Positions 44,284 to 49,411 of a DNA stretch of 64,000 nt are shown one piece after another. The notes beneath the pieces are model-generated. The model made no database searches and was not told where the DNA came from. It saw only the letters and a list, made by a program, of their open reading frames with translations. Every line of letters begins with the position of its first letter. Within the stretch, counting starts at the first letter, position 1. The DNA is taken from the IMG/VR virus record IMGVR_UViG_3300018080_000123, positions 1 through 64,000 of that record; one strand, 5' to 3'. The DNA is from a virus. Both the position numbers and the translations under genes were made by a program.

Positions 44284-44391
44284 AAAAAGGGCGCTGGGGG
44301 TCTGGTTAGCTGCTAGCTACTCTGAGCTTTATACCCTGTGCACTTACCGGGTCTAGAACCCGGGTTGGGCGAGCCAGCCTCGCCCCAGCGC
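44284..44391 (-). ncRNA. Candidate structured RNA with a T-arm-like hairpin
   Basis: GCGCTGGGG/CCCCAGCGC closing stem followed by a U-tract; internal CCGGG-TTCTAGA-CCCGG. Confidence 0.5.
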
Positions 44392-44449
44392 TATGTCTTG
44401 TACATTACTCCCGACGGAGCGGCTTTTATAATACCCACTTGGGGCGAAT

Positions 44450-45238: not shown

Positions 45239-45526
45239 TCACTCCTCCCAATTCATCGGGGCATTGCTTTCGCACTCAAAAGCATAATCCATAGATTTCG
45301 GACAATCATCATCAAAACAGCAAACGACTTCCCGATAGGTCCCGAAATCATGAGAAAAGCTTTTCACCACAAGCTTGGCATTTTCAGGTTCTGGACCAAG
45401 CTTCTTACGAATTAGATCGATAAACCGACGACATTCCTGGCGAGATTTCATCTCGTAATCTTCATCTCCAAGCTGAGCACACAGCTCGTCCCCTGGAGCA
45501 GGTCCTATCTCAACAAAATCTTTCAT
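45239..45526 (-). CDS. Conserved phage hypothetical protein
   Basis: IGPAP..E.CAQLG and HDFGTYREV motifs; very strong RBS. Confidence 0.65.
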   Translation of the reverse strand: MKDFVEIGPAPGDELCAQLGDEDYEMKSRQECRRFIDLIRKKLGPEPENAKLVVKSFSHDFGTYREVVCCFDDDCPKSMDYAFECESNAPMNWEE

Positions 45527-45560: not shown

Positions 45561-45863
45561 TCAAGAGAAAGATCCAGCTAAAAGTACATAGATTACAAAG
45601 CTGTTCCACAGTATAATCGCCCCATGCAAAACCCCAAGGATTCCAAGAGCGTAGACAGCTTTAGGGTAGTATTTGGCCGTTAGTCCTAAAATTGCTACTA
45701 CCCAGCAAAATAATAGTAACAAAGCCCAATCAACCCCTATTAGCCTCATCAGATAATTCGCTATTGGATTGGCCTCGCTCCCACCCATGCCTAGCGCAAT
45801 TCGCGTTAAATACACATCAAGAAACTTAAGCATTATGTTGAGAGCTAATAGTTGTTTGATCAT
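45561..45863 (-). CDS. DUF5658-like membrane protein
   Basis: LDVYLT..G..EANP motif; about 3 TM segments. Confidence 0.7.
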   Translation of the reverse strand: MIKQLLALNIMLKFLDVYLTRIALGMGGSEANPIANYLMRLIGVDWALLLLFCWVVAILGLTAKYYPKAVYALGILGVLHGAIILWNSFVIYVLLAGSFS

Positions 45864-45881
45864 TCCCTTTCCTTTTTCTGT

Positions 45882-46009
45882 GTACTCGGCCCGATGGACG
45901 TGTTAGGACGGCCATCGGGTGGACGTATTCGCAGAGGCCATAGAGAGTGGCGGTTTTCTATGGCTTACCCTAACACCTAACCGTCCGATCCGCCTACAGA
46001 CCCGAGCAC
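45882..46009 (-). ncRNA. Candidate multi-stem RNA with two potential pseudoknots
   Basis: Five stems plus complementarities GTGTTAGG/CCTAACAC and GGCGG/CCGCC; G-U pairs favour the minus strand. Confidence 0.6.
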
Positions 46010-46032
46010 TATATTTGAGCACACGCCTCCGC

Positions 46033-47001
46033 TTATTTATAGTCATACAAATCACCTATTGATGTATCGGTATGGACACACGAAATCGCCTGAGCAAGAA
46101 GTCTAGCTACCGATATAATCTGAATCTTATCAGAGTTTTCGATTCGTTCTTCAAGCTTAATTGTATCGGTTATAATTAATTCTGTTAATGATTCGGACCG
46201 TTCTATTCTATCCATTGTCCATCCGGAAAGTACCGGATGGGTAACTGCTGCCCTTACATCTTCCGCTCCTTTTTCTTTCAACACGTCGGCCGCTAAAAGC
46301 AGCGTTCCGGCCGTATCACACATATCATCAAGAATAAAAATATCTCTTCCCTTCACATCTCCAATAATCTCCATCGTCTCAATTTTATTATGCTCATTCC
46401 GCCTCTTACTCATCACCGCCAAAGGGACACCTAAATGTTTAGCAAATATGTGAGCCCTCCCCGCGCCTCCAGCATCTGGCGAAACAATTGTAAGCTTATC
46501 GTCCCATGAATAGCGCTCTTCAATGTATTGAACAAATAATGGGCCGGCTAAAAGATGATCAACTGGAATGTTGAAGAAACCTTGGATTTGCGGTGAATGA
46601 AGATCAATAGTAATCACTCGATCTGCTCCTGAAACCGTGATCAGATCTGCTACTAATTTAGCTGTGATAGCTGTTCGAGGGGAAGTCTTGCGATCTTGTC
46701 TTGCATACCCGAAGTAAGGAATTACAGCCGTCACTCTACCAGCTGAAGCTCTCTTTAGGGCATCGATTATGATTAGAAGCTCCATTAAGGTTTCATTGGC
46801 AGGCGAGCTAGTGGATTGAACAACGAACACATCCTCTCCTCTCACGCTTTCCTCTACCTTTACAAATAACTCTTTGTCGTCGAAGCGCCTTCCCGACATC
46901 TGGCCCAGAGTAACGCAACGACTAAGCAAAACGCTCAAATCCACAACTACACCGCTAGCAAGACTCATGGAAGCAGTTCCACAGAAAACTTTGATACCCA
47001 T
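46033..47001 (-). CDS. prs: Ribose-phosphate pyrophosphokinase (PRPP synthetase)
   Basis: PYFGYARQDRK, DLHSPQIQGFF, VSPDAGG and DDMCDTAGTL motifs. Confidence 0.95.
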   Translation of the reverse strand: MGIKVFCGTASMSLASGVVVDLSVLLSRCVTLGQMSGRRFDDKELFVKVEESVRGEDVFVVQSTSSPANETLMELLIIIDALKRASAGRVTAVIPYFGYARQDRKTSPRTAITAKLVADLITVSGADRVITIDLHSPQIQGFFNIPVDHLLAGPLFVQYIEERYSWDDKLTIVSPDAGGAGRAHIFAKHLGVPLAVMSKRRNEHNKIETMEIIGDVKGRDIFILDDMCDTAGTLLLAADVLKEKGAEDVRAAVTHPVLSGWTMDRIERSESLTELIITDTIKLEERIENSDKIQIISVARLLAQAISCVHTDTSIGDLYDYK

Positions 47002-47010
47002 TTCTTCTCC

Positions 47011-47835
47011 TCAAAAAATAATACTTGCCGGAGTATCCCAGCTTGTATACATATGTCCATCTTCAGCAAAAATCAAGCTTCGGATATCATTTGTTCTATT
47101 ACAGCTTTGCATACACGTGTCAATATGCATCACCGAAATTCCTTCGTAATCATAGACGCGCCCGCCATGGACCATCTCGCGCACCAAATCAAGACCTGCC
47201 TCATTCATTTGCTCTACATATTTATAATACAAGCTTTGTGGGGCAAATTTTTCAATCCACCCTCTAGTCCCCCAACCTCCCGACATACGTTGAGGACACA
47301 TAATTCGTCGCAACGAGAATTGTCTAACCTTTGTTCGCTTACACTCCTCAATCATTCTTTGAAAAGTATCCTGAGCATTAAGAATGCTCGTTACATTCAT
47401 CGCCACTCTAACTGTTATTCCTTCCTTATCGAGATAGTCAAACAACTTCTCGAACTTCTGAAAGTCATTCATACAATCAAACGAGAAAGCAACAACATTG
47501 AACTTGAGGTCGCTAAACTGCGTAAGAAATTTAACATCATTCTCCTCGAATCGATTCAAGAGACGAAGTCCGTTTGTTTGGACTTCGAGAGGAAAATCGT
47601 TGAACTGAGTGGTAAAATAGAACAAATCATCCCAGTTCATAAAAGGCTCGCCCTTGCCAGTAATCAAAACACACGCCACACCGGCAAGCTTAGCCATCAT
47701 ACGAACCTTACGAATATTTACGCCCATACGATAGATGTTAGGCGTAACTTCTGGAGTCATATTACTTACGCAATATGCACACTTCTTATCACATCCCTTA
47801 TTCGGCAGACAAATCGTCAGACTTTGCGCCTTCAT
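47011..47835 (-). CDS. Radical SAM enzyme
   Basis: CDKKCAYC (CX3CX2C), LITGKGEP and QTNG motifs. Confidence 0.88.
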   Translation of the reverse strand: MKAQSLTICLPNKGCDKKCAYCVSNMTPEVTPNIYRMGVNIRKVRMMAKLAGVACVLITGKGEPFMNWDDLFYFTTQFNDFPLEVQTNGLRLLNRFEENDVKFLTQFSDLKFNVVAFSFDCMNDFQKFEKLFDYLDKEGITVRVAMNVTSILNAQDTFQRMIEECKRTKVRQFSLRRIMCPQRMSGGWGTRGWIEKFAPQSLYYKYVEQMNEAGLDLVREMVHGGRVYDYEGISVMHIDTCMQSCNRTNDIRSLIFAEDGHMYTSWDTPASIIF

Positions 47836-48648: not shown

Positions 48649-48832
48649 TTAAGGTTTCCTCCTGCTGTAAATCTTGTTCTGCTAATTGAAGAGCAGTTTC
48701 AAGCGCTTCCTCAGCTCGTGCCAAATATTCATCAACAACATCAAGAGGGCGTGCATAATCAACCTCAGCAATAACTTTCAGGTTTTCCTTAATCTTGGCT
48801 ACCCTTTTTTGATACCACTTGAGTTTTTTCAT
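48611..48832 (-). CDS. Hypothetical protein
   Basis: 73 aa with GAGGAGG RBS. Confidence 0.5.
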   Translation of the reverse strand: MKKLKWYQKRVAKIKENLKVIAEVDYARPLDVVDEYLARAEEALETALQLAEQDLQQEETLNGRYLEGENNEG

Positions 48833-48914
48833 TTTTAAGCCCTCCTCGCCGGCCTAATATCTCGAATGGAAAATCTAAATCTATCATACCGACTCTGTGT
48901 TATTGACTTCTCAA

Positions 48915-48987
48915 CTCCGGGGATAGGATTCGAACCTATATATTTCTGATTAACAGTCAGACTCATTGCCAGTTATGATACCCCGGA
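48915..48987 (-). tRNA. tRNA-Asn (GTT), CCA not encoded
   Basis: TCCGGGG/CCCCGGA acceptor stem, TCAT/ATGA D-stem, TCTGA-CTGTTAA-TCAGA anticodon arm, ATAGG-TTCGAAT-CCTAT T-arm, discriminator G. Confidence 0.92.
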
Positions 48988-49411
48988 ATTCAGAAGTCAA
49001 TTCATATTTTTCAGCCCAATTAATCCCCTTTTTTTGATTATTTTTAGGCTTGTTTATTCTCAAAAAAGCTCCATTAGCACTACAAGTTTTAACCGGAATA
49101 ACATAAATATTATCATTCTCTGGACAATATACTGCAAACAAATTGCAGCTATTTTTATAATCCATTTTCTTAGCTCTTTTTCCAGATCCAGAGAAATTAT
49201 AAGTATAAAAATGAATTACTCCTCTTTTTAATCGACCAGTCTTAATCTGAATCTTTAGTAATTTCCCCTCCATATCTGCGATTAGATCATACCTTTGATT
49301 ATCTCCGAATGGAATAGATACAGTTATTCCCAACTCAATAAATCTTGATATAACTTTGGCTTCAGAAATATCGCCAATCTGTTTTGTATTGTTCCTCATA
49401 ATATTAACCAC
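48950..49411 (-). CDS. PD-(D/E)XK homing-type endonuclease (PDDEXK_5 / I-Ssp6803I-like)
   Basis: KQIGDISEAKV, PFGDNQRYDLI, KIQIKT and FAVYCPE motifs; probable start at MRNNTK. Confidence 0.88.
   Translation of the reverse strand: MVNIMRNNTKQIGDISEAKVISRFIELGITVSIPFGDNQRYDLIADMEGKLLKIQIKTGRLKRGVIHFYTYNFSGSGKRAKKMDYKNSCNLFAVYCPENDNIYVIPVKTCSANGAFLRINKPKNNQKKGINWAEKYELTSEFRGIITGNESDC

Follow-up and report, generated by a model that had tools for sequence, protein, structure and literature searches.

A probable structured RNA domain with two predicted long-range pairings between prs and a DUF5658 gene of an uncultured phage

The minus strand of an uncultured phage genome carries, between prs and a gene for a DUF5658 membrane protein, a 128-nt element that is very likely a real structured RNA. 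Comparison with its single relative indicates a genuine RNA domain whose fold is under purifying selection. The secondary structure is modelled as a four-way junction made of the helices P1, P2', P4a-P4 and P5, and two predicted tertiary pairings, PK1 and PK2, would lock the domain shut. No described family matches the element, which founds an RNA family with two known members. It starts 26 nt past the prs stop codon and ends 18 nt before the AUG of the DUF5658 gene, on the same strand as both. The sequence-only reading of this DNA had announced an unrecognised RNA directly after prs. A structured, selection-maintained element on the gene strand and outside the Rfam families is indeed found there, whereas the choice offered between ribozyme, riboswitch and sRNA is not discriminated.

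The window, i.e., the whole stretch of DNA analysed, comprises positions 1 to 64,000 of a virus record that is complete at 113,606 bp and bears direct terminal repeats. The sole public run containing this record is a sediment metagenome (DNA), possibly the source sample itself, and no RNA run is found among the public runs containing the phage sequence. The major capsid protein is ~31% identical to capsid proteins of SPO1-like Bacillus phages and falls in an uncultured capsid clade of phages of ~110-120 kb; its closest homologues are 62-63% identical. All genes around the element are carried by the minus strand. The positions of the element, its parts and its neighbours are collected in Table 1.

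Table 1. The element, its helices and pairing strands, and the features that flank it (positions in the window).
Feature	Coordinates	Strand	Sequence	Remarks
Structured RNA element	45882..46009	minus		128 nt; index 1 = 46009, index 128 = 45882
Upstream gene prs (ribose-phosphate pyrophosphokinase)	46033..47001	minus		322 aa; Pfam PF13793, PF14572, PF00156
Invariant 23-nt 5' flank	46010..46032	minus	GCGGAGGCGUGUGCUCAAAUAUA	second GUGCUC copy; part of a 41-nt identical run
P1, 5' strand	46002..46009	minus	GUGCUCGG	partner strand 45882-45889; the relative has G-C for G3-U126
P2', 5' strand	45997..46000	minus	UCUG	P2 re-registered, from RNAalifold; G-C to C-G and U-G to C-G keep pairing
PK1 strand, P2' loop	45990..45994	minus	GGCGG	partner strand CCGCC; the relative has U-A for C-G and G-U for G-C
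P2', 3' strand	45984..45987	minus	CGGA
PK2 strand, P2'/P4a junction	45969..45976	minus	GUGUUAGG	perfect 8-bp complement of 45900-45907
P4a, 5' strand	45966..45968	minus	GUA	3-bp extension below P4, from RNAalifold; U-G to C-G in the relative
P4, 5' strand	45957..45964	minus	GCCAUAGA	compensatory C-G to U-A
PK1 strand, P4 loop	45949..45953	minus	CCGCC
P4, 3' strand	45937..45944	minus	UCUAUGGC
P4a, 3' strand	45931..45933	minus	UGC
Invariant junction	45920..45930	minus	GAAUACGUCCA	apparently unpaired; within a 22-nt identical run; candidate fold core
P5, 5' strand	45912..45919	minus	CCCGAUGG	compensatory G-C to A-U, plus U-A to U-G
PK2 strand, P5 loop	45900..45907	minus	CCUAACAC
P5, 3' strand	45890..45897	minus	CCAUCGGG	directly abuts the P1 3' strand
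P1, 3' strand	45882..45889	minus	CCGAGUAC
A-rich linker and ribosome-binding site of the DUF5658 gene	45864..45881	minus	ACAGAAAAAGGAAAGGGA	one change in the relative
Downstream gene, DUF5658 membrane protein	45561..45863	minus		100 aa; Pfam PF18902

The phage genome contains no NAPRTase-family gene, so that prs is probably a true PRPP synthetase and not half of a NAD-salvage pair; for this reason, the locus of the element was dropped as a partner for NAD-salvage genes. The phage prs shares ~55% identity with the cellular Prs of MAGs from Nitrospirota and Desulfobacterota, a likeness that may give a weak hint of the host or donor. After the close relative, the best prs score (413 bits, 51% identity) belongs to P0004, a 484-aa protein that appears to be a prs fusion and is encoded on a 61,859-bp ENA contig of phage size. 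On the other side of the element, the DUF5658 family is phage-enriched. A search of 5.8 billion proteins returned only two homologues of this neighbour, none was found in GenBank phages, and a literature search on DUF5658 found no paper.

In the revised model, P1 closes the domain with 8 bp, and P2' (4 bp, 9-nt loop), P4a-P4 (3 + 8 bp, 12-nt loop) and P5 (8 bp, 14-nt loop) branch from it. PK1 joins the P2' and P4 loops by 5 bp and shows covariation; its duplex is calculated at -10.9 kcal/mol. PK2, between the P5 loop and the strand joining P2' to P4a, counts 8 bp, or 9 with a G-U, is invariant in both phages and reaches -10.0 kcal/mol as a duplex. The P5-loop linkers flanking the PK2 strand are short (4 and 2 nt), and PK2 may therefore form only partly; the presence of GUUAGG in two places gives the P5 loop two registers to choose from. 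Two side-by-side stacks, P1-P5-PK2 and P2'-PK1-P4, could build up, with the invariant unpaired strands CGGUUAG and GAAUACGUCCA as a putative core of the fold.

Most of this architecture had been proposed from the letters of one phage. The helices P1, P4 and P5 drawn there are present on the minus strand, at the positions of Table 1, and are kept in the relative, where the complementarity of the P5 loop to an unpaired strand over 8 bp is also confirmed as invariant. The pairing of the P2 and P4 loops holds as well, over 5 bp (GGCGG/CCGCC) that covary. Conservation of the loop complementarity in homologues had been named as a point on which the proposal could fall, and it is kept in the only homologue. 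Helix P2 (GGUC/GAUC) exists in the sequence, but one of its pairs breaks in the relative and the register UCUG/CGGA fits better. Helix P3 (GGACG/CGUCC) can likewise be drawn, but the relative breaks it (C-G to G-G) and it overlaps P2', so it was dropped. The suggested switch between GGACGG and CCGUCC did not survive either, as a C-to-G change in the relative weakens this alternative pairing instead of preserving it.

The relative, IMGVR_UViG_3300018080_000170, is a 70-kb IMG/VR contig with conserved synteny and 74-84% nucleotide identity. Identity reaches 92% for prs and 77% for the DUF5658 protein, and the relative's copy of the element differs by 16 substitutions over 128 positions with zero indels. 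Fourteen of these changes lie inside proposed pairs (12 of them within the 44-pair model), and none falls in the junction strands CGGUUAG and GAAUACGUCCA or in the P5 loop. The original model was written without the relative's sequence, so that the relative provides an independent test. Set against it, this model shows three double compensatory changes (C-G to U-A in P4, G-C to A-U in P5 and C-G to U-A between the P2 and P4 loops), four one-sided changes that keep the pair and two breaks, one in P2 and one in P3. At least three double changes together with at most two breaks occur in a fraction of 1.7e-4 of 200,000 random placements of 16 substitutions.

RNAalifold, run on both sequences, independently picked P1, P2', P4a, P4 and P5. 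All 44 pairs of the revised model are standard in both phages; four carry a change on each side and five on a single side, and no pair is broken, a score (4 double, 0 broken) reached in 0 of 200,000 random placements, although P2' and P4a were selected once the relative was known, so that these two adjustments weigh less. A column-shuffle control, which has little power with two rows, gave 27/500. As only two sequences are available, PK2 and all junctions are invariant and stand outside the reach of covariation. The longest identical runs in the 2.8 kb alignment of the two phages measure 53, 43 and 41 nt.

The folding statistics point to the same strand as the genes. The element has 58.6% GC vs 39.8% for the genome, in agreement with the earlier description of a GC-rich element in an AT-rich genome. 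Eight regions of the genome reach this level (0.09% of 128-nt windows), six of them inside long ORFs; the other two, the only non-coding peaks, are this element and an RNA candidate located 1.5 kb downstream. The minimum free energy on the minus strand is -56.5 kcal/mol (z = -3.5), equalled by 1 of 200 shuffles, whereas the plus strand has a z-score of -1.5 and loses P1. On the other strand, the five G-U pairs counted over both phages would turn into A-C mismatches, which argues for a selected structure on the gene strand; thus, G-U pairs and z-scores both designate this strand. Only 1 of 3000 dinucleotide shuffles contained, within 128 nt, as many as four different 8-bp helices with no more than one G-U.

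The downstream candidate, at 44290-44425 on the minus strand, is a second conserved structured RNA candidate closed by a 9-bp stem, GCGCUGGGG/CCCCAGCGC, after which comes a U run. It includes a T-arm-like CCCGGGUUCUAGACCCGG and a hairpin AGCUCAG...AGCU that becomes AGCG...CGCU in the relative. It contains the longest identical run of the region (53 nt) and has no Rfam match at E<=10. Positions 7477-7705 of the relative hold ~228 nt, located between this second RNA and the next gene, that are absent from the window, and the ribosome-binding motif AGGAGG is duplicated at both ends of this insert. Other differences concern genes. The 274-aa radical-SAM gene directly upstream of prs (47011-47835, minus) lacks an equivalent in the relative: the BLAST alignment skips from 47844 to 47012. 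The block with an endonuclease and tRNA-Asn (~48650-49400) and a 95-aa ORF (45239-45526) are absent or replaced. These differences mark the region as a hotspot of gene gain and loss.

The element is not a coding sequence, as judged from the codon changes between the two phages. The open frame that runs through it shows 15 non-synonymous vs 1 synonymous codon change, and the other five frames are similar, with non-synonymous changes far above synonymous ones; prs, used as a control, shows 105 synonymous vs 25 non-synonymous changes. An extension of prs by read-through or frameshift was also rejected, as an in-frame stop would end the read-through after 7 codons and conservation is lacking in the other frame.

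None of the 4227 models of Rfam 15 reaches its gathering score on the element. Local scans at E<=10 with 501-nt and 136-nt queries returned noise only, snoJ33 (15.7 bits) and mir-1180 (14 bits). The single gathering-level match in the window is the tRNA at 48915-48987, the same tRNA-Asn (48914-48988) being the only one called by ARAGORN. At the element, no tRNA or tmRNA is called by ARAGORN and RF00005 does not match; its last arm has 8 bp and a 14-nt loop. The hammerhead, twister, twister-sister, pistol and hatchet models gave no match at E<=10 with the 136-nt query, and a hammerhead core is absent. HDV-like ribozymes are nested double pseudoknots with the order P1-P2-P3-P1'-P4-P2' and a catalytic C in J4/2. 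The element does not follow this order, as its crossing helices run PK2a, P4 hairpin, P5a, PK2b, P5b, with a gap of 4 nt between P5a and PK2b. The sequence-only reading had likewise seen no fit to hammerhead, HDV or tRNA, a judgement with which these scans agree. Covarying stems around invariant junctions, a trait of riboswitches, are found, on two sequences. Downstream of P1, the gene strand shows neither a terminator-like site nor a U-tract. The ribosome-binding site is unpaired in all computed folds, none of which offers an alternative structure hiding it, the sole alternative pairing detected being that with the 5' flank; a classical expression platform is thus missing. Neither TROVE/Ro60 (PF05731) nor RtcB (PF01139) is matched in the complete phage genome, and no Rfam Y-RNA model matches.

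Partial likenesses to several known RNAs can nevertheless be drawn. SAM-I (RF00162) also measures ~100-130 nt and has a P1-closed four-way junction in which a hairpin loop pairs with a junction strand, and SAM-I-type aptamers share with the element covarying stems, invariant junctions and a position upstream of a same-strand gene. The pairings nevertheless differ, L2'-L4 and L5-J2'/4 in the element vs L2-J3/4 in SAM-I, and the element displays no sequence or covariance-model match, no recognised kink-turn and no expression platform. Twister, twister-sister and HDV-like ribozymes share a compact fold, two long-range pairings and invariant unpaired strands with the element, but their conserved cores are absent, Rfam does not match and the strand order is not that of HDV. 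Like a tRNA, the element has a four-way junction whose 8-bp closing stem is continued by the last hairpin stem in the acceptor/T-stem manner, and a 4-bp first arm with a 9-nt, GG-containing loop in the D-arm position. It differs from a tRNA by the lack of a T-loop sequence and of a CCA-type tail, by a middle arm that spans 63 nt and by a 'D' loop pairing with the middle-arm loop instead of the last-arm loop. The pRNA of phi29-type phages is also a phage RNA of ~120 nt with paired ends and two mutually complementary loops, which pair between molecules and build a ring. The element is unlike it in having no Rfam match, in belonging to a 113.6-kb phage, pRNA being to our knowledge known only from small phi29-like phages, and in showing no link to packaging genes.

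The distribution of the element appears narrow. Blastn against GenBank phages and against plasmids found no third member. Five IMG/VR pattern scans and nhmmer gave, among the matches listed, only IMGVR_UViG_3300018080_000170 or chance matches; one scan of JGI metagenomes gave only a chance match inside a coding region, and one of GTDB genomes only a chance match in cyanobacterial repeats. A covariance model run on 80 viral prs loci and on the phage's own genome revealed no further copy. On 36 records of the same capsid clade (10 complete), this model, whose reach is limited by its two sequences, did not find the RNA, and prs is absent in all 14 clade records searched for it. The Pfam DUF5658 model is blank in these relatives, but it also misses the homologue of the known relative. 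With neither RNA nor prs in the clade records and no third member, the string prs-RNA-DUF5658 appears to be an accessory module of one lineage. By its description of motif selection, a survey of structured RNAs in IMG/VR retained a motif only when it matched three or more regions (Fremin, Bhatt and Kyrpides 2023, PMC10690425), so that a two-member family would, on this description, be missed. The candidates that it describes are, like the element, orphan intergenic covarying RNA motifs of uncultured phages.

The 5' flank of the element adds a possible dynamic side to the fold. The 41-nt identical run spans the last prs codons, the whole 23-nt flank and the P1 5' strand. The GUGCUC of the flank lies 13 nt upstream of the first copy, and such a repeat occurs in 1 of 100 window shuffles. 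This upstream copy can pair with GAGUACAC and displace the P1 5' strand at almost equal energy (-59.7 vs -59.8 kcal/mol, secondary structure); in the relative, the same alternative has a larger gap (-50.8 vs -54.6 kcal/mol). As read from the sequence, GCGGAGGC of the flank likewise has a complement, GCCUCUGC, at the base of P4; a fold pairing both halves of the flank simultaneously was rejected as energetically poor. A scan for sigma-70-type sites found neither a sigma-70-like promoter nor an intrinsic terminator bordering the element on the gene strand, and the element is thus read as transcribed, presumably, within the prs-to-DUF5658 message. A phage-specific promoter may lie within the invariant flank. 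The flank was discarded as a recurring promoter motif, its sequence being unique in the window, and TATAAATA at the prs stop was discarded as a T4-type late promoter, the motif occurring in the genome at chance frequency.

The function tentatively favoured for the element would be exerted in cis, as a switch or processing element within the prs-DUF5658 transcript. In such a role, it would act as an aptamer-like switch or a processing signal. The closed form would compete with the pairing to the invariant 5' flank through the second GUGCUC copy, a ligand or protein would bias the balance between the two, and this bias would set the expression or stability of the downstream membrane-protein message. 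The cis-acting role is favoured because of the tight intercistronic position, the lack of a bordering sigma-70-like promoter or terminator and the invariant flank with its alternative pairing. It is also supported by the absence of trans-target complementarity above chance, complementary 10-mers in the phage genome being at chance level. The combination of changing stems and frozen junctions resembles, by analogy, the core of an aptamer or ribozyme. As a rule, riboswitch and ribozyme classes are widely distributed, and the narrow range of this element, which is lacking in 36 related phage records and in all collections searched, speaks against a cis-acting switch. The missing expression platform, with a ribosome-binding site left unpaired by the computed folds and no terminator behind P1, weighs in the same direction.

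The element could instead be a stable trans-acting small RNA, cut from the polycistronic transcript at A/U-rich single-stranded flanks and working with a phage or host protein or, via its loop complementarities, as a homo-oligomer. Such an RNA is rather unlikely here, although its ends pair in P1 with P5 abutting P1, as in tRNA, Y RNA and other stable RNAs, and its flanks AAAUAUA and ACAGAAAAA are single-stranded and A/U-rich. The same gene string also holds tRNA-Asn and the second conserved structured RNA (44290-44425); of the eight high-GC regions, this candidate and the element alone are non-coding, and covariation does not separate intramolecular from intermolecular loop pairing. The failure of the sigma-70-type and intrinsic-terminator scan to find a promoter or terminator of its own, the chance-level target complementarity in the phage genome, on account of which an sRNA seed region was discarded, and the lack of a Ro60 or RtcB partner in the phage weigh on the other side. 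A self-cleaving ribozyme of a new class, predicted to cut the prs-DUF5658 transcript, e.g., at the 5' edge of P1, and so to uncouple the fates of the two messages, is distinctly improbable. The 128 nt, compact double pseudoknot and invariant junctions of the element resemble twister, HDV-like and glmS ribozymes, its position in the phage is intergenic, as is often the case for double-pseudoknot self-cleaving ribozymes in phage genomes, and its invariant upstream flank offers the 3' strand of the closing helix an alternative partner. This last trait recalls HDV, whose ribozyme folding is modulated by upstream alternative pairings. Yet no Rfam ribozyme model matches even at E<=10, the hammerhead core is lacking, and the helix order is unlike that of the nested HDV fold, the only hairpin between the crossing strands preceding P5 instead of separating the second strand from the third.

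Less specific explanations call for no partner or no RNA at all. A passive structure that stabilises or insulates the mRNA without a specific partner, or a fold surviving partly by chance in two recently diverged phages, would fit with the identity of the element (87.5%), which is not above that of the flanking genes (~84% over 1.5 kb), with a family of two sequences and with a column-shuffle control that is weak with two rows. It is very unlikely in view of the four compensatory doubles and zero breaks among 16 substitutions, found in none of the random placements; moreover, two long-range pairings and invariant junctions exceed the needs of a protective hairpin, and four 8-bp helices are rare in shuffled sequences (1/3000). 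That the conserved object is a small peptide gene or a single-stranded-DNA structure, such as a priming or recombination site, is hardly credible. One frame is open from before the prs stop to a UAA in the P5 loop, GGAGG is present in the 5' flank, and compensatory changes would preserve a DNA hairpin too. That frame, however, accumulates non-synonymous changes (15 vs 1 synonymous), the GUG codons read from the sequence come only 1-3 nt after GGAGG, the five G-U pairs would be A-C mismatches on the other strand, and no repeat or origin-like feature is seen around the element.

Complex folds with two long-range pairings within ~130 nt typically belong to ribozymes and riboswitch aptamers, of which new classes seldom appear. 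That the element represents a new class of catalytic or ligand-sensing RNA, either a self-cleaving ribozyme whose four-way junction with two tertiary pairings is unlike the known classes or a metabolite riboswitch, is possible, if on the doubtful side. In its riboswitch form, the ligand would be, e.g., PRPP, given the phage's own prs, a 7-deazaguanine intermediate or c-di-GMP. With two known copies only, the element may prove to be a lineage-specific oddity. It is short and cleanly bounded with explicit pairings, and therefore suited to mutation and rescue work. It sits in an accessory gene island that holds prs, and a sensing or self-processing RNA at this place would, if true, show how a phage tunes such genes.
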